Below, in pieces: positions 4,160 to 46,243 of a DNA stretch of 64,000 nucleotides; the first letter of the stretch is position 1; each line of letters begins with the position of its first letter. Origin of the DNA: a virus (taxonomy: Duplodnaviria; Caudoviricetes). The DNA is taken from the IMG/VR virus record IMGVR_UViG_3300017909_003066, positions 45,043-109,042 of that record; one strand, 5' to 3'. The notes under the pieces were generated by a model. It was not told the origin of the DNA and did no database searches. It saw nothing but the letters and a program-made list of their open reading frames with translations. Both the position numbers and the translations under genes were made by a program.

Positions 4160-4723
4160 TTATAAAAGTTGATCAGCAATGCCCATGTCTATCATTTGTT
4201 TTGCTGTATAATATTGATCTGAAGGATTTTTGATAAACTTGTTTCTTACTTCCTGCATAGACATACCAGTTGCCTCCTTCAATATATTTAAGCAACGCAA
4301 TTCGCAGTTTTGATTTTCTTTCATTTGTGCCCTCATGTCATGCATTTTAGATTCCATGCTGTCACTATGTTGATGATTCATTATACCTGTGTTCTTACCA
4401 ATGTATCTGTAACCTTGAGAACCACTTGCAAAAATTAAAAAACCTGCACTCATAATAGCACCAACACCTACCGTGCTTATATGATGATAACTTGTTTTCA
4501 TTACATCAATTAGTGCAAACATCTCATACAAATCACCTCCTGGTGTGTTGAGATATAATTCTAAAACTCTTTTTGGTTTCTTTACTAGGTTTGCACTTAA
4601 TATCCATTTGATTGCTTCACTTACATTTTCATTTGTAAGTTCGCCATGAAGATAATGTATATCGGCATCTAATAATGCTCTATCTATTGCATCGCTGGCT
4701 GTCCAATTTTCGTATTTAGGCAT
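4160..4723 (-). CDS. clpP: ATP-dependent Clp protease proteolytic subunit
   Basis: LYLNTPGG, IMSAGFLI (Ser), MNHQ (His), DQYYTA..GIAD. Confidence 0.9.
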   Translation of the reverse strand: MPKYENWTASDAIDRALLDADIHYLHGELTNENVSEAIKWILSANLVKKPKRVLELYLNTPGGDLYEMFALIDVMKTSYHHISTVGVGAIMSAGFLIFASGSQGYRYIGKNTGIMNHQHSDSMESKMHDMRAQMKENQNCELRCLNILKEATGMSMQEVRNKFIKNPSDQYYTAKQMIDMGIADQLL

Positions 4724-5586: not shown

Positions 5587-5925
5587 ATGACTACAGAATT
5601 AGCCAACGCAATAAAAGACTTCGGCTTTCCAATAGTTGCCGCAATGGGTCTTGGTTACTTCGTGTTCTATGTGTGGCGTTGGGTCACAATGGAAATCAAA
5701 CCTGTGCTAGGTGAAGCACAATCTACATTAATAAAATTAGTTGACAGAGTAAGAATGTTGGACAATGATATGATTAGATTAAACACTAAATTAAGTATGG
5801 TGTTAGAATATAAAAATGAGATAGAAGAGTCAACTGGTAAAAAATTTGATACAGACGAATTGAATGAAATTTTAGAAAAATATAAAACTAGTTCTGAAAC
5901 ATTTAATTCAACAGGAAAAAAATAA
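5587..5925 (+). CDS. Small membrane/coiled-coil protein (paralog B)
   Basis: FGFPIVAAM TM helix, then LDNDMIRLNTKL. Confidence 0.75.
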   Translation: MTTELANAIKDFGFPIVAAMGLGYFVFYVWRWVTMEIKPVLGEAQSTLIKLVDRVRMLDNDMIRLNTKLSMVLEYKNEIEESTGKKFDTDELNEILEKYKTSSETFNSTGKK

Positions 5926-6064
5926 TGACCGAAAGAGATATCTATGAACTTGAGGCTCAAAAACGTTTCCGTAAGTCAATAGGTGACCAGATTTGGACAC
6001 ATACTGATTTAGCAAAATACATGGTAGTTGGAATGTTACTAGGCGTTGTATTAGGAAATGTTGT

Positions 6065-6439
6065 GTGTCAGTTTATATCGTAATTAATTTACTATTCTTT
6101 TTAGTAATAAAACATTGTATTGCCGACCTAGCGATACAGAAACTATTCCCTAGTAACAAATTACAGTATCTTAACAAAGATGCTCATAAGCACTACTTAC
6201 ATCATGCAATAGGCAGTTTTACAGTAGGCATATTTTTTAACGTTTATTTTGCGACATTAATTTTTGTTTTAGACTATTTAATTCACTGGCACGTTGATTT
6301 TGTAAAGACTCATGTGAAAAAGTTTTTTGATCTTGACGAAAGTGATCGTATGTTTTGGGTTTTACAGTCTGTGGATCAAGCACTGCACTTTTCGACTTAC
6401 TACCTATTCGTAATTCTATTTCTGCAATTCTACTCTTAA
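6065..6439 (+). CDS. DUF3307-like membrane protein
   Basis: KH.IAD...Q, H..H, HWHVD..K, DQALH motifs. Confidence 0.75.
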   Translation: MSVYIVINLLFFLVIKHCIADLAIQKLFPSNKLQYLNKDAHKHYLHHAIGSFTVGIFFNVYFATLIFVLDYLIHWHVDFVKTHVKKFFDLDESDRMFWVLQSVDQALHFSTYYLFVILFLQFYS

Positions 6440-6471
6440 TTGAGCGAACTCTATTTTCAAGATCGAAATCA

Positions 6472-8511
6472 TTACTTACTGGTTGCGACGTAGACTCCGT
6501 TCCATGTTTCATTTGTAATATTTTGTAAAGCCATTTCATTACATCTTCCAATCATAGTCTCATAATATTTTTTATTTTGCTGTGGTCCATTTTTTGCTAG
6601 TTTTTCTGCTTTGTCTATTGCTTTAGTCCACTCTGCTTTTCTATAATATTCTAAAAACAATTCGTGTGCCCTGTAATAGTTTTCCTTTTGTTCTTCTAAC
6701 ATTATAGTGAAAATTCTTGCTGGTTCTGTTTTACCTTTTACTGCAATCAAATCTAATTCTACGTACTTGAATAAATCATCTTTACTTGACTCACCTATTA
6801 GTAATTGTTGCCCATACTCTTTGGACTGTCCTTCAAGTCTTGCGGCAAGATTGACAGCATCTCCAAGCACTGAATAATCAAAACGTTGATCTGATCCCAT
6901 ATTACCGACGACAACATCGCCAGTGTTAATACCAATACCAATATTAATAGGAAGTAGTCCCTCACTCTCCAACTCATTGTTTAACTCCTTTAGTCCTTTT
7001 AACATATCAATTGCTGTTTGTGTTGCTAGTTTCTTTTGCTCAGGAACATCTAAAGGTGCGTTCCAAAAGGCCATTAATGCATCTCCAATATATTTGTCTA
7101 TTGTTCCTTGATTAGTCATAACAATATTTGTCATAGGAGTCATATAGCGATTAATTAATTTTGTTAATCCTTGTGGATTAGTTTTATACTGTTCTGAAAT
7201 CGGAGTAAAACCTCTTATGTCCGAAAACAGTATAGTAAGTTCTTTAGTTTCGCCTCCCAATTTAAGTAAATCTGGATTCTTCTGTAATTTTTTAACCATT
7301 GCAGGTGCAAGGTAATGTTCAAACTGTTTTTTAATTTGTTGTTTTAATTGGAACTCTCTAACAAAGCGATTGAATACTGCATGGAATCCAACTATGGTAG
7401 ATACTACTACAATCCAACTCCAATCCCATAACTGTAAATGCCTTGTAAACGTAAAATAAGCGCCGTACACGGTGGTTGAATAAACTGCTAATATAACTGC
7501 TCCAACTACCCAGTAAGGTGCACGTACGGCGGTTACAATAAGCAATAAACCTATGATTATAGACGTTATATACTCTAAGAATGTAGCATAATCATAACGT
7601 ACTATATTATCTCCATTTACAATAGTTTGGATAGCAGTTGCTGGTAAAATATGCCGAGAAACTTCTCCATTTGGTGTTGCAATAATACTACCTAAACCTT
7701 CAGCAGTTGTTCCAATTATTACTATTTTTCCTGCAAGTGGAGAATAATCTTCCTCTGCCAAACTGATTGATTCAAATTGTTTATTCCACCTAATCCAAAT
7801 TCTTCCATTAGCATCAGTTTGAATAGTTTGATAAGCAGGTACTCGCATAGCAATAATACCGCCTTCTCCTGCTTTTACTTGATAACTTGGATCTCCTACT
7901 GCAACTCTAATGGTTTCTATAGCAATGCTAGGATATACTTCTTCACCTATTTTCATCAACAATGGTAGGCGTCTTGTTACACCATCTATTTCAGGTGCAG
8001 TGTTTATTACTCCAACTCCGTCAGCATTTTGTCCTAGGATTTCTATTGGCCCTAACATACCAGGCCACTCAAATAACCACGGCATTGGATCACCTATTTT
8101 AGCAACACCTCTTGGCACTGCATTTTTGTTTACTCCTTGTGAAGTTCCAACCTGTGCAATGATAATACCGTTGCCGGAAAGTTTTTGTGCTAGTTCTAAA
8201 TCACCACCTAGCCTATCTGGTTCAGAAAACAATACTGGAAGAACAATTACTCCAACGCCTGTTTCTCTTAATTTTTGTATAACATCTGCAAGTACATCAC
8301 GTTTCCAAGGCCATTGCCCATACTTTTCAATAGCACGTTCATCTATTTCTAATATTGCAATATCTTGTGATAATACTGGTGTGTCATACTGTTGTATAAC
8401 ATCAAAGGATTTAAGTCGTAGTAATTGCTTTACATAAGGGTCGGATAACCCTATAAAAGATATGACTGCAAGGGTCAGAATAGCAGATACCCAATGTGTT
8501 AACCATTTCAT
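6472..8511 (-). CDS. CHASE2-domain class III adenylate cyclase
   Basis: CHASE2 (IDERAIEKYGQWPWKR, DGVTRRLPL), 3 TM helices, cyclase motifs FSDIRGFT, DKYIGDA, FDYSVLGDAVNLAARLEG. Confidence 0.92.
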   Translation of the reverse strand: MKWLTHWVSAILTLAVISFIGLSDPYVKQLLRLKSFDVIQQYDTPVLSQDIAILEIDERAIEKYGQWPWKRDVLADVIQKLRETGVGVIVLPVLFSEPDRLGGDLELAQKLSGNGIIIAQVGTSQGVNKNAVPRGVAKIGDPMPWLFEWPGMLGPIEILGQNADGVGVINTAPEIDGVTRRLPLLMKIGEEVYPSIAIETIRVAVGDPSYQVKAGEGGIIAMRVPAYQTIQTDANGRIWIRWNKQFESISLAEEDYSPLAGKIVIIGTTAEGLGSIIATPNGEVSRHILPATAIQTIVNGDNIVRYDYATFLEYITSIIIGLLLIVTAVRAPYWVVGAVILAVYSTTVYGAYFTFTRHLQLWDWSWIVVVSTIVGFHAVFNRFVREFQLKQQIKKQFEHYLAPAMVKKLQKNPDLLKLGGETKELTILFSDIRGFTPISEQYKTNPQGLTKLINRYMTPMTNIVMTNQGTIDKYIGDALMAFWNAPLDVPEQKKLATQTAIDMLKGLKELNNELESEGLLPINIGIGINTGDVVVGNMGSDQRFDYSVLGDAVNLAARLEGQSKEYGQQLLIGESSKDDLFKYVELDLIAVKGKTEPARIFTIMLEEQKENYYRAHELFLEYYRKAEWTKAIDKAEKLAKNGPQQNKKYYETMIGRCNEMALQNITNETWNGVYVATSK

Positions 8512-8519
8512 ATGTGTAT

Positions 8520-8948
8520 TTAACTAATATTGCACCAATATTGTTCGGCGCCAGGTTGTAGAGAATCACAACCTCTGATTAGTAGTTCTAACATTTCAGG
8601 AAGATCTTGTGCAATACCTGTAATCATTGCAAGTAAAATAAACAGGAAAAATAATATGAAAGGACTTAATAGTATCAACCACCAATAGGTTCTAAATATC
8701 CCGTGACCGTGTGCTTTACGATATTCACGTTTACGTGCAAACCAATGTACTATTGCTCTTGCAATACGTTTAAGTCCGCCTACAAACCAATCACCTATAA
8801 AGTACCTAATGATTCTAACAACAATAAGGACAGGACTTGCAATAACTTCCCATATTAAAAGTAAGGCATCAACACAAAGATCAACAACATGATCTATTGT
8901 CCACCATTCTTTAAACCGTTGCCAACGGCTTTTTTGTTTTGTCTCCAT
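8520..8948 (-). CDS. Trp/Arg-rich membrane protein
   Basis: Two hydrophobic segments; lies between curlin and cyclase genes. Confidence 0.65.
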   Translation of the reverse strand: METKQKSRWQRFKEWWTIDHVVDLCVDALLLIWEVIASPVLIVVRIIRYFIGDWFVGGLKRIARAIVHWFARKREYRKAHGHGIFRTYWWLILLSPFILFFLFILLAMITGIAQDLPEMLELLIRGCDSLQPGAEQYWCNIS

Positions 8949-8955
8949 AACGTAT

Positions 8956-9999
8956 TTAGTTTTGGGTAACTGTCACGCCACAACCGTTAGCATTTGTACA
9001 TATACCTGTAATACTATATGTTTTATTTGAAGTTGCTGTTTGATCTAAGTCTAATGTATAACCACCGCCTGAATTTGTTAGATTAATATTTGCTGTATGT
9101 GAACCATAGCGTTGAAATACGTCAACTGTATGTCCGTCATCTAAAACTATGTCCGCAAACTGTTCATCACTATTTCCACGTTGTAATAATGTAACATTAT
9201 TATCGTCACCGTTTATTTCAATATATCCTTCATGATCGCCGCCGCCACGCTGTGTATGTTTTACAGTATTGCTATCACCTGTAACGTAATTTGCAATATG
9301 TTGTCCACCATTACCATTATCATCTGTTTGATAACTTTCCAAATTGTTGTTACTACCTGCTACAATCCAATACACATCATTGTCGCCAGTCTCATCTGTA
9401 TCCACTGTTCCATTTTCGTGTTTGCCTTGCCATGCTTTAATATTATTTGAACTACCGTTAACCGTAACTGTATTGATGTTATTGCTTTGATCGTGAATTT
9501 GTATGTCTATACTATTATTACTACCATCTATAACTTCTGTGTAAAGTGTGTTGCTATCGCCGTTATCAATCGTTACGCTAATTTGATTATTGATATCGTT
9601 ACCATTGCCTATTTCAGTATGAGTGACATTACTATCTCCATCGATACTAACAGACATGTTGTTATTGTTTCCGTGATTGTCCATGGCACTTACATTTGAA
9701 TTACCGTCCTGTGTAAGACTCATTTGATGATTACCTCCATGTGTCCAAAATCCTGCACGGTTGTTATTGCCTTGTTGTGTGATTGAAAGGGTTTTGTTAT
9801 TACCACCTATGTATGCATCACCACTTGTAGTGTTAAGACTACGGATAGAATTATCTTGACCGTCTTGTGTAATATCTAAATCTATTGAATCACCAACCTG
9901 AGTCATGTATATGTCATTTGCTAATCCTTTCATAGGAAAAACTAACAGCAAAAATAAAATACTACTGTACTTGAATAATGTCAATTTCATTCTGTCCAT
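8956..9999 (-). CDS. Curlin-like repeat protein (long, CsgA/CsgB-like)
   Basis: Signal peptide; NDIYMTQVGD; many ~22-24 aa x-Q-x-G-x-x-N repeats. Confidence 0.75.
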   Translation of the reverse strand: MDRMKLTLFKYSSILFLLLVFPMKGLANDIYMTQVGDSIDLDITQDGQDNSIRSLNTTSGDAYIGGNNKTLSITQQGNNNRAGFWTHGGNHQMSLTQDGNSNVSAMDNHGNNNNMSVSIDGDSNVTHTEIGNGNDINNQISVTIDNGDSNTLYTEVIDGSNNSIDIQIHDQSNNINTVTVNGSSNNIKAWQGKHENGTVDTDETGDNDVYWIVAGSNNNLESYQTDDNGNGGQHIANYVTGDSNTVKHTQRGGGDHEGYIEINGDDNNVTLLQRGNSDEQFADIVLDDGHTVDVFQRYGSHTANINLTNSGGGYTLDLDQTATSNKTYSITGICTNANGCGVTVTQN

Positions 10000-11065
10000 C
10001 TCCTAATTGATAGTCTCTATATTCAAAGTCGCCTTGTTGCATATTGATATTATATCCATTTGCTTGATTTAAACGTAATTCAAAAAAGTTACCCATACCA
10101 TCATCTCTACGTATTAACCAATCCGGTTTTTGATCATAAAGTTCAATACCGGTTTCAGGATCTTTTCCTAATTGTATTCCTTGATTTCTTTCATCAAGTG
10201 CACCTCGCATAAGTCTAGCAAGTGCTTCATTAATTAAATCTAAAACGTTCCGCAAAAAGTCCTGTCCTAAAAAATCAATATCTAGATCGGTCATCCATAA
10301 ACCCTCAGTCTGCACTGCTAGATAATCTTTATTCAGTTCATCAAATTCTAAAAAATCAAATCCCAAAAAGTCTGAAAGTTTTTTAATACGGTTTCTTTCT
10401 AATTCTTCTTCTATTTCTACTGGTTTTCTAATAACCAATAAGTTGTTAATCAAACTTTCGTCTATATCTAGTGTAATTGGATTCAATGGTTTAGATTTAG
10501 CAGTTTCTACAACCGTGGCTTGGAAAGCCTGATTTAGAATTACAGTGCCTACATCACTGGAAACTTCTATTTCTCCTACTACACAAATTTTACTTCCCAT
10601 CACTATGGTACAACTTGGTAGTAGGATAATAGTACTATTACCCGTTTCGTCAACAGTCATTGTAAAGTCTGTTCCTCTTACACCAATAACTGCTGTGGGT
10701 GTTGTTATTTTGACATTTTGTTTTGAGTTTTTTGCAATCTGACCACTTGCATATCGTACTGTTCCAAAAGACGCCTTGAGAGCGAGAGAACCAGTGGACG
10801 TATTAGGATCATATACAAACTCATCTATTACAAGTTTACTGTTTTCAGTTACATCGACTCTAGTGTCATCGACAAACTCAATTGATGTTCTTCCAACTTT
10901 TGTTTTTACAACATCATAACTTTCAATGCCAAAACCTTCATTGGAACGATATCCGTCACCATCCTTTCGGATAATATCTGCCTCACCGATCTGCTTGGTT
11001 ACTTCACCAATATTAGCATACGCGGTCGAGGTTAGAATGACCAATAACAGAACCAATATACGCAT
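9962..11065 (-). CDS. FecR-domain periplasmic protein
   Basis: Signal peptide; D.VKT..G...IEFVDDTRV.VTENSKL.ID; TPTAVIGVRGTDF. Confidence 0.85.
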   Translation of the reverse strand: MRILVLLLVILTSTAYANIGEVTKQIGEADIIRKDGDGYRSNEGFGIESYDVVKTKVGRTSIEFVDDTRVDVTENSKLVIDEFVYDPNTSTGSLALKASFGTVRYASGQIAKNSKQNVKITTPTAVIGVRGTDFTMTVDETGNSTIILLPSCTIVMGSKICVVGEIEVSSDVGTVILNQAFQATVVETAKSKPLNPITLDIDESLINNLLVIRKPVEIEEELERNRIKKLSDFLGFDFLEFDELNKDYLAVQTEGLWMTDLDIDFLGQDFLRNVLDLINEALARLMRGALDERNQGIQLGKDPETGIELYDQKPDWLIRRDDGMGNFFELRLNQANGYNINMQQGDFEYRDYQLGDGQNEIDIIQVQ

Positions 11066-11781
11066 TAGTCATCCTGCGTAATATCTATTTCAGCGTCATC
11101 TCCACTTGTAGTCAACTGTAACTTGTTATCATACAAACCACTTTGTGTGATATTGATTACTCCACCGTCACCTGTGTGACTGTGTGTTAGTGAATGTCCA
11201 TTTACATCACCGTTGTCATTTATATCATAAACGGCAGTGTTTCCAGTTAATCCACTTGAGTTTGAAATATCAATGTCAGCATCAGCATTTTGACCGTCTA
11301 CAGTTAGTGTTACTGTTTCAGCGGCCGCTGATGTAATATCCATTGTACCTACAAAGTTCACTGCATCTGCATTTTCACCTATGCTAACAACAACTGTTGC
11401 TGAACTTCCTGTTACATCAATACTCATACTAACAGTTTCACAATTTCCTGATCCTGCTGTACCTGTACTATCACAAAGTAATGCTACGTTGTTTGAGTTA
11501 CCTGTTAAATCAATGTTACCTGTATAAGTGTCACCATTGATTATTGCAGAAACAACGTTAGAGTTACCTACTTGGTCTATATTAAAGGTCATAGTATCAC
11601 CTGTCAATTGTATTGCTGTGCTACTAGTACCTGCTACGTTGTTTTGTCCGTCTTGCGTTATATCTAAGTCTAAGTCATCGCCTGATTGCGTAATGTAAAT
11701 ATCATTCGCCAATACAGGGGTAACAAGGCTTAACGAAGATAGTAAGAACAATCCGTACATGAATGTTTTAAATTTATTCAT
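11065..11781 (-). CDS. Curlin-like repeat protein (short)
   Basis: Signal peptide; NDIYITQSGDDLDLDITQDGQNN; Q-x-G-x-x-N repeats; one Cys pair. Confidence 0.75.
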   Translation of the reverse strand: MNKFKTFMYGLFLLSSLSLVTPVLANDIYITQSGDDLDLDITQDGQNNVAGTSSTAIQLTGDTMTFNIDQVGNSNVVSAIINGDTYTGNIDLTGNSNNVALLCDSTGTAGSGNCETVSMSIDVTGSSATVVVSIGENADAVNFVGTMDITSAAAETVTLTVDGQNADADIDISNSSGLTGNTAVYDINDNGDVNGHSLTHSHTGDGGVINITQSGLYDNKLQLTTSGDDAEIDITQDD

Positions 11782-11792
11782 TCTCGCTCCTT

Positions 11793-12623
11793 TTATTTGT
11801 TAGGACCTTTATGAAGTGTGATTTTATCATCTTTAAACTTCCAAAGGCCTTTTGTTTCCCCTTCTTTAACTAATTGCAATATAGCGGCCTCAATTGCGGC
11901 CCTAACTGCGTAATTGGTAGGTTCATTTACTGCGGCACCAGTCTCTATTTCTAAAGCCTTAGTACCTAAGTCCAAAAACCTGAACACATCTGCTCCAGAC
12001 TTGTAACTTGCTATCGTTTTTTCAGTTGCCACGCTCAACAAAACTTCTCCTGTTTGTACACTAACGATTCGCATTGCCACTGTTACCTGATCGGTTCTGT
12101 AGGTTTTATTTGCTCCAATACCAAAATATCTTGCTCCTACTCCCCCGCTAGTTGTATTAGAATCGTAGCCAACTACTCCACCCTCTAATAACAATCCAGC
12201 AAATAACATTGGTTTTAATTTTACTGGTTCTTTTTCATATACTTCCCTTGTCGACCTAATTAATTGCCTTTCCTTAACTAAATTATCTAGACCCACTCTT
12301 TCTACAACAGTGAACCATGTGCCTTTTCCTGCCTTTTGAAGTGCATTAATAACCCACACTTCAGAACCTTGAGTAACTGCACTGCTTAATTGAGAAAACT
12401 TATCATTTGGTTTTCTCTGGCCCGTTTTATCAAGAAAACTATAAACAGCAATAGTAATCTTTGGACCGTCTAGCACGGGTAATGATTCTAACTTATTCAC
12501 TAATGGAGTTGTTGCTTTAACTGGCTCGCTCCATTCTGTGTTAGACATCGTTGCCGCACAACCATTTAACAGTAATGCAAAAACAATCCCGGTGAATACT
12601 TTAACACAATTAGTTTTTCTCAT
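11793..12623 (-). CDS. csgG: Curli secretion channel lipoprotein CsgG
   Basis: Lipobox LLNGC; VYSFLDKTGQRKP, SSAVTQG, WFTVVERVGLDNLVKERQLIR, EGGVVGYDSN. Confidence 0.93.
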   Translation of the reverse strand: MRKTNCVKVFTGIVFALLLNGCAATMSNTEWSEPVKATTPLVNKLESLPVLDGPKITIAVYSFLDKTGQRKPNDKFSQLSSAVTQGSEVWVINALQKAGKGTWFTVVERVGLDNLVKERQLIRSTREVYEKEPVKLKPMLFAGLLLEGGVVGYDSNTTSGGVGARYFGIGANKTYRTDQVTVAMRIVSVQTGEVLLSVATEKTIASYKSGADVFRFLDLGTKALEIETGAAVNEPTNYAVRAAIEAAILQLVKEGETKGLWKFKDDKITLHKGPNK

Positions 12624-12626
12624 AAG

Positions 12627-13085
12627 TTAGAACCCAAATCCGCTCAATGGAACAATAATTTCTGTAAATGTTCCATCTTCTTCAGTAATTTGTACGGTTA
12701 TTGTATCAGTGGTGACATCTTTGATCCAATAAATGGTAGCACCTTCTATTTCTGCGGTACCTGTCAAAGCGCCAGTATCACTGAACATATTATCAACCAT
12801 TTGTTTACTGAGTTGAGCATAGATTCTAGATTCTACATTAGATAAAAACTTCGCTAAGGTTGTGCCTTCAGCCTCACGTTGTTTTCGCCTTGCTTCTGAT
12901 TCTGCTTTTTCCTCAGCGTCCTTTTTCCTAGTGAACTGAAGTTGCTCGATGCTCAGTACGTGGTTGCTATACCCCTGTCCACTAAAACTAGGATTTTTGA
13001 ATTCAAAAACTTCGTCTGCAAGAGTAACAGTAGACAAGAAGGCAGTCAAGACAAATGTCAGTAAAATACTATTAAATTTACACAA
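12627..13085 (-). CDS. csgF: Curli assembly protein CsgF
   Basis: Signal peptide; FEFKNPSFSG N-terminal motif; directly upstream of csgG. Confidence 0.8.
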   Translation of the reverse strand: MCKFNSILLTFVLTAFLSTVTLADEVFEFKNPSFSGQGYSNHVLSIEQLQFTRKKDAEEKAESEARRKQREAEGTTLAKFLSNVESRIYAQLSKQMVDNMFSDTGALTGTAEIEGATIYWIKDVTTDTITVQITEEDGTFTEIIVPLSGFGF

Positions 13086-13163
13086 GATCTCGCTCTCCCA
13101 CTAATACACTGTTATTTACCGTTCAATGAGTTTTCATTAAATACAATTACTCGTATCACAGTC

Positions 13164-13195
13164 TTTACAGTATTATTTACTGTAAAAATTTTTAC
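13164..13195. promoter_or_regulatory. Overlapping inverted repeats in the csgF/Fis-HTH divergent region (candidate operator)
   Basis: TTTACAGTA-N5-TACTGTAAA and palindrome GTAAAAATTTTTAC. Confidence 0.45.
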
Positions 13196-13237
13196 GGAAA
13201 AGTGCGTATATAATTATTGTTAATAAGGATATAACAA

Positions 13238-13510
13238 ATGGACATTATAGAGAAAGAAACACCCGAAGAAATGGAAAAAAGAATTGCGGAGCAAGATGCT
13301 TTGTGGAACCTATTTGACGAAGTGTGGCCTAAAAATGCACCACCGCAAGTGCGAAATCTAAATGATGAAATCAATAGTTTGCAGAAGGTGTTAGTGCAAC
13401 AGGCTATGTCAGATGCAAAACATAACAAAACAAAAGCCGCGGAACTTCTTCAGATCTCTAGAGAAAATCTTATTTACAAGTTAAAGAAAATCGAAGAAGA
13501 ATCAGTGTAA
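13238..13510 (+). CDS. Fis-family (HTH_8) DNA-binding protein
   Basis: LVQQAM...NKTKAAELLQISRENLIYKLKK. Confidence 0.85.
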   Translation: MDIIEKETPEEMEKRIAEQDALWNLFDEVWPKNAPPQVRNLNDEINSLQKVLVQQAMSDAKHNKTKAAELLQISRENLIYKLKKIEEESV

Positions 13511-13573: not shown

Positions 13574-14101
13574 CTAAAAGTGATGCACACTTGTTGTAAG
13601 TATATCTGCTACTTCTTCAAACAAAATAGGAGTAGCATTGATCCTTTCAACACTTACATTGAAGTAAGACGGGTCATCAATAACGTTACTGTGCAAGTGT
13701 CCATGAATGTTGCCTTTGAATCTACCTATCTGTGTAGGGTGAACCGGAACATGTGTTAAGATAAACCCTTTGTATTCAAAAGCGCCTCTGATATCTTTGA
13801 AGTGTTTTGCGTAATCCTTCAAATCAAACAGATCATGGTTACCTTTTATAAGCACTTTTTTTCCGTTAAGTTTATCTAAAATAGACAAACTTTTTCTAGG
13901 AAATGCAACGTCTCCCAAATGGTAGACTTTATCTTCAGGTGCCACAATACTGTTCCATCTGTCAATCATTACTTGATCACCAGTCGCAGAATCAGTTGCC
14001 CATGGACGTATTCTATCACCGTTACTGTCAGTAAAGGTGTATACGGCATCATGACCAAAATGTGTGTCACTAATTAAAAACCTACGCATATCATTCCTCA
14101 A
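13574..14101 (-). CDS. Calcineurin-like metallophosphoesterase
   Basis: SDTHFGH, HLGD, GNHD, THVP, HGHLH. Confidence 0.9.
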   Translation of the reverse strand: MRNDMRRFLISDTHFGHDAVYTFTDSNGDRIRPWATDSATGDQVMIDRWNSIVAPEDKVYHLGDVAFPRKSLSILDKLNGKKVLIKGNHDLFDLKDYAKHFKDIRGAFEYKGFILTHVPVHPTQIGRFKGNIHGHLHSNVIDDPSYFNVSVERINATPILFEEVADILTTSVHHF

Positions 14102-14493: not shown

Positions 14494-15123
14494 TTAGATA
14501 TATTGCGGGCCTAATGCCCAAACTACAAGACTTTTACGTGTACCAGATGTAACAGGATGTACGCAATGTGGTATAATAGAACTGAAAATAACCATATCTC
14601 CAATTCCTCCTAGTTTTACAACTTCAGTTTTTCGTTCATTGTGTTCCATACCACCATCAAGTTCAAAATCACCGCCTTCATATTCACTAGGATCATTCAT
14701 TAGTATTGTAGCACTTAACTTTCTTAATTTGCCAGGAAATTGTGTATCATCGCCATACGGCCAAGGATGTGCATCATAGTGCCAATCATAGTGTCCATTT
14801 TCATGTCCGTGGTATATTGTGTATTGGCAAGGTTCAAATTGATCTATCCTTAGTTTCCATTGACATTCATCATTCGCAGTAATAAACATTTGTTGAAGTC
14901 TTTCGAATACCCAAGGCTCTTCAAAGAACCATAAATCACTTCTTCTTATGTCTGCGTTTGGAATTCCACTAAATGTTTCCTCTTGGGCAGGATCTTTTGT
15001 TTGAAACCCTGTCATGCCACGTTGATTGTAGCCTTTAGTTTGTGCTATTTTTTCTATTTCTTTACACTCTTCTGGTGTAAAAACTTTTAGATATGTTTGA
15101 AATAATATAGGTGAGTTAAGCAT
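14494..15123 (-). CDS. 2OG-Fe(II) oxygenase (PKHD/prolyl-hydroxylase-like)
   Basis: YDWHYD, RKLSAT, YEGGDF, HCVHPVTSGTRKSLVVW. Confidence 0.9.
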   Translation of the reverse strand: MLNSPILFQTYLKVFTPEECKEIEKIAQTKGYNQRGMTGFQTKDPAQEETFSGIPNADIRRSDLWFFEEPWVFERLQQMFITANDECQWKLRIDQFEPCQYTIYHGHENGHYDWHYDAHPWPYGDDTQFPGKLRKLSATILMNDPSEYEGGDFELDGGMEHNERKTEVVKLGGIGDMVIFSSIIPHCVHPVTSGTRKSLVVWALGPQYI

Positions 15124-44591: not shown

Positions 44592-46243
44592 TACGCAAAG
44601 TAACTAAGACTATATGTGAGGGTTCCTACGCCGTTGCCGATTGGATTGCGATATTTGACTGCAACTGTTTCACTACCAGTAGTTGAGTCTAAATCATCTA
44701 ATGTGCATGACCATTCAATTGCTCCGTCACTGTTTCCTGTATGACTGTGACTGTCGGTTAAATTAACACTAGAATTGTTAAGTGTGATAGTTAATCTGCC
44801 TTGTCTTGTTGTGTCTGAACTTGTACCTGATTTGACAATTAGATAATCAACATAAGCAAATTTATCTTTAGTGAATGGAATCTTTAAAATTTGAGTTGGT
44901 GCATCAACTTCTGATAAAGTTTCTTTTTTAACTCTTGATCTTGTATAATGAAAACCGTCTACGTTAGGTTTAAATGGAGTACTTATTAAACCTGATTCAT
45001 TTATAAATGCATCTCTTTCAAAAAAGTCTCCTATGCTTTCACATAAAGGAGTATCAAATTTAATAACACTAGTTTGCGGAGCATTTTGACCATTACTGTT
45101 ATTAGCAACATCTAAGAAATTATTTCCTGTTGATGTATGTCCCCATGGTGTTGTGTTGTTTGGTGCGTGAACGGCAATGCCAAAATCATCTATTTTATCA
45201 AAGTTATTGTTTTTTATAATATAGTGTCTTGGTCCTTGTGATTGACTACCGCTACCTGAACTTGTTCTTGCTAGGTCAATACCAACATGTCCAAATGTAA
45301 ACACTGATTCAGATATTGTTACACCATGTGTATCGTAAATGCTGTAAATGTGTACACTGTTTTTTGTAAAATGACATTTACTAATTACAATATTTTCACT
45401 TGTTAATGCACCTAAGCCTCTAATATCAATACCTACTTGATTAACATCTAAACCTTGTAGTGATACCCACTTACCTTCAAATTTACAATCATTAATTACA
45501 CTTTCAGTTGTGTTGTCTAAATATAGTTGTGGTGCATATACTCCTACTGAACTATTTGTTTTGAAACTTAATCCTGATAGTAATATATGTTTTGGCCTTG
45601 CAATACTTCCCATGTTTGCAAATTTAATATAATTACCCGGTGTGCTATCTCCACCAACAGTTTGGAAAATTGCTTTTGCAGTTGGAGTATTCTCTTGTGG
45701 GTCAGGAAACATTTCAATCACAGTACTATCTGGACCGTCGCCGACTAAATTTGCATATGGCGGAATGTAAATTGTTTTAATTACTTTGTAAGTTCCTGCT
45801 TCAATTTTTAAAGTTCTTCTTGATTTTGCATCAAACTTATCACTTGAATTAAGAAATATTTGATCTATTGCTCTTTGAAGTGCATCAGAATCATCTGTAA
45901 CACCATCACCAACTGCTCCAAATGATTTAATAGAAACAATATCATCTAATCTTTTTTGTATTGTTCTTTTAATAGGATCATTTGCAAACTCTCCAGTCTG
46001 TACAGTTGCACCAGTATTACCTTTAAATTCATATTGATCTAAAAGATCAAATATATTTGTTTTTGTAGTAAGAATTTCTGTGTTACCCACAGCAGGTGCA
46101 CCTTCATTTACACTTCCATTACCTATATATAATTTCTGTGTATCTACTGCCCACCCTAATTCAGCACTCGCTAGTTGTGGAATACCTGTAGTAGTTTCTT
46201 TACCTCTACGATGCTGTATTTTAGATATTTGTACGACTGCCAC
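44591..46243 (-). CDS. Virion protein with pectate-lyase-like beta-helix (tail/baseplate)
   Basis: MAVVQISKIQHRRG..LPQL...ELGW, FGAVGDGVTDD..A.Q.AI; TAAATA upstream. Confidence 0.75.
   Translation of the reverse strand: MAVVQISKIQHRRGKETTTGIPQLASAELGWAVDTQKLYIGNGSVNEGAPAVGNTEILTTKTNIFDLLDQYEFKGNTGATVQTGEFANDPIKRTIQKRLDDIVSIKSFGAVGDGVTDDSDALQRAIDQIFLNSSDKFDAKSRRTLKIEAGTYKVIKTIYIPPYANLVGDGPDSTVIEMFPDPQENTPTAKAIFQTVGGDSTPGNYIKFANMGSIARPKHILLSGLSFKTNSSVGVYAPQLYLDNTTESVINDCKFEGKWVSLQGLDVNQVGIDIRGLGALTSENIVISKCHFTKNSVHIYSIYDTHGVTISESVFTFGHVGIDLARTSSGSGSQSQGPRHYIIKNNNFDKIDDFGIAVHAPNNTTPWGHTSTGNNFLDVANNSNGQNAPQTSVIKFDTPLCESIGDFFERDAFINESGLISTPFKPNVDGFHYTRSRVKKETLSEVDAPTQILKIPFTKDKFAYVDYLIVKSGTSSDTTRQGRLTITLNNSSVNLTDSHSHTGNSDGAIEWSCTLDDLDSTTGSETVAVKYRNPIGNGVGTLTYSLSYFA

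Follow-up and report, generated by a model that had tools for sequence, protein, structure and literature searches.

Genes of the curli, or type VIII, secretion system (T8SS) were first reported in phages by Zaragoza-Solas et al. in 2020, as a csgFG operon of pelagimyophages (PMC7029224). In 2022 Wittmers et al. described a longer set in podo- and myo-pelagiphages, consisting of CsgF, CsgG, CsgA/B, FecR, a second CsgA/B and an adenylate cyclase (PMC9599517); Buchholz et al. in the same year treated only csgGF, and their account contains 0 mentions of the curlins, FecR or the cyclase (PMC9004378). The CHASE2 domain of the phage cyclase was not named in the published accounts of the module found by literature search. 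A block of these genes has now been analysed in a 64,000-nucleotide stretch of viral DNA (positions 45,043 to 109,042 of IMG/VR virus record IMGVR_UViG_3300017909_003066), and it is this whole stretch that is referred to below as the window. The record itself is 109 kb long, is a fragment of the genome of a marine T4-like phage, and carries tail-fibre and ribonucleotide-reductase genes.

The block consists of seven minus-strand open reading frames (ORFs) packed within positions 6472-13085, in the order csgF, csgG, curlin 1, a gene for a secreted FecR-fold protein, curlin 2, a small membrane ORF and a CHASE2 adenylate cyclase. Their coordinates leave 3 nt between csgF and csgG, 11 nt between csgG and curlin 1, 7 nt between curlin 2 and the membrane ORF and 8 nt between the membrane ORF and the cyclase; curlin 1 and the FecR gene overlap by 1 nt, and the FecR gene and curlin 2 by 38 nt. 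A preliminary description of this DNA had reported seven co-oriented, tightly packed genes at these positions, and both the ORF coordinates and the Pfam matches agree with it. With the small membrane ORF left aside, the same genes are found in the same order as genes 99-104 of Methylophilales phage Melnitz and gp014-019 of Pelagibacter phage HTVC008M, and the window is syntenic with both phages. The six proteins are 42-67% identical to those of Melnitz and 33-63% identical to those of HTVC008M over the best segments aligned by tblastn, the 33% value being that of curlin 2 in a partial alignment. By sequence, the block is a further intact example of the phage T8SS-FecR-cyclase module known from earlier publications. 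It differs from the Melnitz and HTVC008M copies in the 142 aa membrane ORF, which stands between curlin 2 and the cyclase only in this copy and four close relatives.

Enterobacterial curli (csgBAC-csgDEFG) share with the block the CsgG channel, CsgF and secreted subunits whose curlin repeats are about 22 residues long; the phage block, however, has no CsgE match and no distinct nucleator identified, and adds the FecR-fold protein and a membrane cyclase. In S. meliloti the outer-membrane protein NsrA feeds the CHASE2 cyclases CyaD1, CyaD2 and CyaK, and then Clr (PMC13001267), so that there a signal passing via an outer-membrane protein likewise drives CHASE2 adenylate cyclases. That pathway differs from the phage block in that its outer-membrane part is a beta-barrel and not CsgG, it has no curlins, and its CRP-family reader, Clr, is known. 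A periplasmic FecR-domain gene, smc02177, adjoins cyaD1 in S. meliloti and is not required for signal perception. Finally, the FecA-FecR-FecI and PupB-PupR systems have in common with the phage protein a periplasmic signalling domain of FecR/PupR fold, which in the phage protein is the N-terminal domain; the phage FecR protein differs from them in being soluble and secreted, with neither a cytoplasmic anti-sigma domain nor a transmembrane helix.

Linkage of curli genes, FecR and cyclase

CsgG and three divergent FecR sequences were used as queries to retrieve 187 viral loci, which were annotated with profiles built for the purpose. It is clear that the genes travel together: csgG lies upstream of FecR in 164 of the 164 viral loci having at least 3 kb of upstream sequence, and a CHASE2 gene is nearby in 145 of the 146 that could be assessed. 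A survey of gene neighbourhoods had been set as a test in the preliminary description, and the co-occurrence is strongly upheld. The 120 complete viral loci contain one curlin (53 loci), two (66 loci) or three (1 locus), curlin 2 being optional in the family, and the conserved core reduces to csgF and csgG with a single curlin, FecR and the cyclase. FecR is found directly before the cyclase in 53 of these 120 loci, as it is in the bacterial copies described below; its position between two curlins, which had been taken as a pointer to a sensor, is on this comparison a derived state and does not bear that weight. The cyclase is inverted or lies on the opposite side of the block in some loci (e.g. 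L127, L166 and L216). A histidine kinase upstream of csgF has been reported for podophages; no recurrent histidine-kinase gene was found at that position in 162 loci, which are probably all of the myophage type.

The FecR profile, made from a 12-row alignment, was scanned against 185,579 species genomes and gave 80 loci. The whole curli-cyclase block is present in 9 of these, and in 19 of the 71 others, which lack csgG, a CHASE2 gene lies beside the FecR-domain gene. These bacterial pairs resemble the phage one in that an exported FecR-domain protein is encoded beside a CHASE2 membrane sensor. They differ from it in having no link to csgG, in the FecR partner, which either is minimal, at about 150 aa, or carries unrelated tails, and in the output domain, which may be a cyclase, a histidine kinase (HisKA/HATPase) or an HD_5 phosphodiesterase. 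Since FecR and CHASE2 remain constant while the outputs vary, it can be argued that the FecR domain and CHASE2 form a two-protein periplasmic sensor, and from their gene neighbourhoods the two look like a signalling pair. The partnership of FecR with CHASE2 drawn in the preliminary description is thus seen again in bacteria, joined to three kinds of output domain. Neighbouring FecR and CHASE2 genes have also been published, as cyaD1-smc02177 of S. meliloti and as a Burkholderia operon of LysM-FecR and a CHASE2 kinase (PMC5192318); a literature search found no published experiment on a FecR-CHASE2 interaction for any pair.

Three alphaproteobacterial chromosomes contain csgF-csgG-curlin(s)-FecR-cyclase, namely that of a Henriciella metagenome-assembled genome (MAG), on a 397 kb contig (L023), and those of two Caulobacteraceae MAGs (L019 and L020). 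The flanks of these blocks are ordinary chromosomal genes (TonB receptors, alanine racemase, methylmalonyl-CoA mutase), and within them the FecR gene overlaps the cyclase gene. Few bacteria have the whole block; in samples of 401 genomes at class level and 301 at order level, the full-length FecR protein or the block was found in the centre genome only. Wittmers et al. stated that FecR and the cyclase do not lie within bacterial T8SS operons (PMC9599517), a statement that is therefore qualified by the three alphaproteobacterial genomes. In a tree of the cyclases, the T8SS-linked enzymes form a single clade (Shimodaira-Hasegawa-like approximate likelihood ratio test, SH-aLRT, 99) apart from 11 bacterial FecR-linked cyclases without csgG; eight further rows of this tree (within L001-L013), labelled as bacterial without T8SS, are viral. 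The bacterial block copies are sister to one viral subclade and are not basal (SH-aLRT 95), and transfer is therefore possible in either direction.

Six MAG contigs also contain the whole block (L017, L018, L021, L015, L016 and L022), in bins assigned to Luteolibacter, Bacteroidetes, Pelagibacter, Polynucleobacter and an unclassified bacterium. Their dense small ORFs (e.g. in L017) suggest that they are phage contigs binned into MAGs. In the Caulobacteraceae locus L019, a gene for a calcineurin-like phosphoesterase (5785-6642 of that locus, plus strand; SpdA E 2e-33, CpdA E 4e-24) stands just upstream of csgF, so that the curli genes there lie between a phosphodiesterase gene and a cyclase gene. 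In having this SpdA/CpdA-like gene beside it, the block is reminiscent of the S. meliloti cyaD1 locus.

The secreted FecR-fold protein

The FecR gene (9962..11065, minus strand) encodes a protein of 367 aa that matches Pfam FecR with E 6.5e-10. A cleavable signal peptide is followed directly by a beta domain, with neither an anti-sigma domain nor a transmembrane segment anywhere in the protein. In the AlphaFold2 model (predicted local distance difference test score, pLDDT, 87.8) an N-terminal beta domain of the FecR type (residues 20-215) is joined by a helical linker, modelled with lower confidence, to a confidently predicted six-strand C-terminal beta domain at residues 300-365. Most members of the FecR family have a conserved Cys pair, which fits folding in the periplasm, the predicted location of the protein. 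The family is a large one: clustering at 90% identity leaves more than 7,500 clusters, and a search at E <=0.001 gives 13,739 representatives.

Over 137 aligned residues the N-terminal domain resembles the cell-surface signalling domain of PupR (6ovk; Z 15.5, root-mean-square deviation (rmsd) 3.0), and it also matches an anti-sigma factor of Bacteroidales (4m0n; Z 14.4). Neither an extracytoplasmic function (ECF) sigma factor (PF04542) nor a TonB-dependent transducer (PF07715) was found in the 109 kb record, which is only part of the phage genome. The protein has a FecR domain and yet is not a FecR-type regulator. Residues 16-112 can also be superimposed on the anchoring domain of a repeats-in-toxin (RTX) adhesin (5ix9; Z 7.7, rmsd 2.1, 74 residues, 24% identity by VIA-align). 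In that case the domain heads an adhesin secreted by the type I route, whereas here it heads a 367 aa protein of a T8SS operon; a retention role for the FecR N-terminal domain, by analogy with the RTX adhesins, is a lead. The N-domain profile also matches giant alphaproteobacterial proteins of 1000-6900 aa, with E down to 1e-45, and the matched domain begins about 100-130 residues from their N-terminus (loci L098, L101, L102, L107, L110, L114, L118 and L120), which is consistent with the similarity to the RTX anchoring domain.

The C-terminal domain is confined to FecR proteins linked to csgG. When predicted alone (pLDDT 89) its best Z was 3.8 against 48,161 chains, and Foldseek gave no match at E <=0.001. 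A motif of the form hydrophobic-x-hydrophobic-x-Gln is found at most 4 residues from the C-terminus in 178 of 178 full-length viral FecR proteins, and the same motif ends 212 of 274 curlins as against 38 of 2,634 other ORFs. Both families also have Gly at position -9. In an hhalign comparison the final repeat of curlin 1 is matched end-to-end by the last 41 residues of FecR (P 3e-4; the N-domain, as a control, gave P 0.04). At the motif level the likeness between the tails of FecR and curlin is real; homology and docking are unproven.

Pore, curlins, cyclase and neighbouring genes

The csgF gene (12627..13085, minus strand) has a TTG start and encodes a secreted T8SS accessory protein (Pfam CsgF, E 3e-13) whose translation shows a signal peptide and, at the N-terminal end, the motif FKNPSFSG. 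The Pfam match spans profile positions 3-132 of 132, and the protein also matches PHROG 35372 (E 3e-50); a phmmer search against solved structures gave no CsgF match. The product of csgG (11793..12623, minus strand) is an outer-membrane lipoprotein channel (Pfam CsgG, E 2e-52) with the lipobox LLNGC, and its residues 13-264 match the E. coli CsgG structures 3x2r and 6l7a (E 5e-50). More distant CsgG-like genes, mostly annotated as hypothetical, occur in Brevundimonas jumbo phages (ON529851-ON529860), five of which, of about 350 kb, have such a gene at 27-29% identity (E about 1e-6).

Both curlins have, like CsgF and the FecR protein, a signal peptide in their translation, and both show internal self-repeats at the canonical 22-residue period. 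Curlin 1 (11065..11781, minus strand; 238 aa) falls narrowly short of the curated cut-off for Curlin_rpt (E 9e-4), but is accepted as a curlin because of its 22-residue repeats and because its family matches that of curlin 2 in hhalign (probability 98.9%, E 1.4e-17). A homologue of it is present in all viral loci, and its C-terminus is the hydrophobic-x-hydrophobic-x-Gln motif. Curlin 2 (8956..9999, minus strand; 347 aa) matches Curlin_rpt with E 3e-6 and, weakly, the solved curlin 8c50 (E 8e-4), and has a C-terminal Cys pair. The preliminary description noted no csgE in the window, and a search of the 109 kb record with PF10627 had no match at E 0.1; CsgE has also been reported missing from alphaproteobacterial systems (PMC9599517). 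CsgC and CsgD did not turn up among the genes of the cluster, at which no search for either was aimed. The contrast of a sensor with an amyloid operon, drawn in the preliminary description, is not supported, as no complete locus lacks a curlin with repeats of the canonical 22 residues. CsgG, CsgF and curlin-repeat substrates are encoded as parts of a T8SS, which may form extracellular amyloid fibres.

The last gene of the block (6472..8511, minus strand) encodes a 679 aa CHASE2 class IIIb adenylate cyclase (CHASE2, E 4e-43; Guanylate_cyc, E 4e-20), which is 57% identical to Melnitz gene 104 and 54% identical to HTVC008M gp019. One transmembrane segment is followed by a periplasmic CHASE2 domain (Pfam match at residues 16-321), three further transmembrane segments and a cytoplasmic catalytic domain, a layout typical of CHASE2 sensors; this order, with CHASE2 in the periplasm and the cyclase in the cytoplasm, implies that the signal flows inward. 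The two metal-binding Asp residues (FSDIRGF and IGD), the Lys (DKY) and the Asn/Arg (VNLAARLE) are all present, and judging from the alignment the catalytic residues are intact. The metal-binding Asp pair and the Lys had been correctly recognised in the preliminary description, but the Lys/Asp adenine-specificity pair that it proposed was not, the Asp of FDY not being the residue at the specificity position. When the protein is aligned to CyaB (3r5g; E 5e-34) and CyaC (1wc0), the position of the specificity Thr is occupied by the Ser of DYSVLGD, and the enzyme is therefore assigned to class IIIb with a Lys/Ser pair.

The small membrane ORF (8520..8948, minus strand; 142 aa) has two hydrophobic segments and no family match in Pfam, PHROG or NCBIfam. 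Homologues were found in only 4 of the 187 viral loci (L125, L126, L127 and L146), and on this distribution it is a lineage-specific insertion. Divergent from csgF, and separated from it by an intergenic region of 152 nt, lies a gene (13238-13510, plus strand) for a stand-alone 90 aa Fis-family helix-turn-helix (HTH) protein (Pfam HTH_8, E 2.7e-10), which from its position could be a regulator of the curli block. A scan of the block for promoters and terminators gave a signal no better than chance. Near the block are also a ClpP-like protease gene (4160-4723, minus strand; E 2e-26) and a 2-oxoglutarate-Fe(II) oxygenase gene (14494-15123, minus strand; E 3e-12), and an oxygenase is likewise found upstream of the block in HTVC008M. 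The ORF at 13574-14101 (minus strand) was considered as a cyclic AMP (cAMP) phosphodiesterase and is unconvincing as such; it is a weak metallophosphoesterase with PdeM as its top match (E 2e-6), far below the cut-off.

A possible signalling role for the block

The explanation that we tentatively favour, and would still place slightly on the doubtful side, is that the state of curli secretion or assembly is passed by the FecR protein, as an adaptor, to the CHASE2 cyclase and so to cytoplasmic cAMP. In the infected cell the CsgG/CsgF pore would export the curlins, which would build fibres at the cell surface, while the FecR-fold protein would stay in the periplasm. Its N-terminal domain would act as cognate partner to the CHASE2 sensor domain, by analogy with the bacterial FecR-CHASE2 gene pairs, and its C-terminal domain or tail would engage curlin subunits or the secretion apparatus. 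The cyclase would then convert the state of curli secretion or assembly into cAMP, information moving from the envelope to the cytoplasm. Signalling in this direction, which the preliminary description had put forward, is plausible in view of the co-occurrence of the genes, the recurrence of FecR with CHASE2, the domain order of the cyclase and the NsrA precedent in S. meliloti; what is not supported is the suggestion that it replaces an amyloid role. Sensing by the phage block of contact, for example with virions or grazers, also proposed there, is speculation.

A more specific form of the mechanism is possible, in which FecR is a physical coupler with its N-domain on CHASE2 and its tail on a curlin, the base of the fibre or the CsgG/CsgF pore, perhaps as a stalled T8SS substrate similar to the RTX retention domain. 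The block would then be an envelope-spanning device that senses load or contact, and its cAMP would be read by a new kind of receptor in hosts without cNMP-binding proteins. Taken as a whole this seems unlikely to us.

Several observations weigh against the adaptor mechanism. The hhalign match between the C-terminus of FecR and curlin has a probability of only 39%. The C-terminal domain is a compact beta domain with no match to curlin 8c50, and a comparison made to see whether it has a beta-solenoid (curlin) fold gave no support for one. Covariation between the FecR and curlin tails within loci is small; 0 of 5000 shuffles reached the observed value, rising to 1072 of 5000 upon dereplication. 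A Rosetta-stone search for fused FecR-CHASE2 or FecR-curlin proteins found none, its two matches both being RTX-like or FecR only. In Melnitz infections no fibres or clumping were observed (PMC9004378). There is also the question of what would read the cAMP: searches for a cyclic nucleotide (cNMP)-binding domain (PF00027) had no match in this record, in three further large contigs or in the genomes of Melnitz and HTVC008M, both of them complete, and the family to which the Pelagibacter MAG belongs (SAR11; G405-G463) likewise gave none in 58 of its 61 sampled members. The domain is present in 3 of these 61 genomes as against 10 of 14 control genomes, and both bacterial carriers of the block encode several. 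From these searches, the phage cAMP output would have no known reader, and no obvious receptor, in such SAR11-family hosts.

The published interpretation, that of Wittmers et al. (PMC9599517), runs the other way: FecR and the cyclase regulate the curli system, in that the level of cAMP is set by a cue, related to iron or not, and in turn governs the expression or activity of the T8SS, the fibres being the real output (aggregation, 'sibling capture' or defence against superinfection). It accounts for the curlins, which are always present, and has a parallel in E. coli, where cAMP-CRP feeds curli regulation (PMC9599517). We nevertheless consider it improbable. With no anti-sigma domain, transmembrane segment, ECF sigma factor or TonB-dependent transducer, nothing ties the FecR protein to iron signalling; no CRP-type receptor was found in the phages or in most of the sampled SAR11-family genomes; and the genes form one tightly packed block, so that transcriptional feedback would act upon itself.

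It could be instead that, without CsgE, the CsgG/CsgF pore stays open and that a solute or peptide from outside enters the periplasm and is sensed there by FecR and CHASE2, the curlins being accessory. The lack of a CsgE match in the record, the outer-membrane protein upstream of the CHASE2 cyclases in S. meliloti and the minimal bacterial FecR-CHASE2 pairs that occur without curli genes all fit such a sensor of external ligands. Left unexplained would be why a curlin is retained in every complete locus and why the curlin-type tail of FecR arose only in linkage with csgG, and we rate it no higher than the published interpretation.

Alternatively the block may hold two unrelated functions that travel together, a curli fibre cassette and a host-takeover cyclase with its FecR partner, acquired as one block from an alphaproteobacterial donor. 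The whole block is indeed found in bacterial chromosomes, the FecR-CHASE2 pair does stand alone elsewhere, and the cyclase has been inverted or relocated in some loci. The near-perfect linkage across very divergent lineages, the single clade formed by the T8SS-linked cyclases and the T8SS-specific C-terminal domain and tail of FecR are all difficult to reconcile with chance company, and this seems to us very unlikely. Least probable is the proposal of Buchholz et al., made from structure modelling and synteny of Melnitz (PMC9004378), that CsgG/CsgF was repurposed as a gated secretin- or pinholin-like pore timing progeny release, as CsgG is an outer-membrane lipoprotein channel and not an inner-membrane holin, and as that study overlooked the curlins, FecR and cyclase that are always co-encoded.

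The adaptor mechanism, if correct, would concern phages that are abundant in the ocean, as judged from the more than 7,500 FecR clusters and from the detection of viral curli proteins at all 65 GOV2.0 stations (Wittmers et al., PMC9599517); curli genes are lacking in SAR11 and OM43, the hosts on which such phages have been cultured (PMC9004378, PMC9599517). To the published module the present work adds the linkage counts, the pairing of FecR with CHASE2 in bacteria, the T8SS-specific FecR tail, the three bacterial copies and the lack of cNMP-receptor matches in the phages searched and in 58 of the 61 SAR11-family genomes. These comparative results narrow the question to a FecR-fold adaptor that couples curli secretion to a CHASE2 cyclase, and to a reader of cAMP where there is no CRP-type receptor. 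The answer would give a first function for the widespread FecR-CHASE2 sensor pairs of bacteria.

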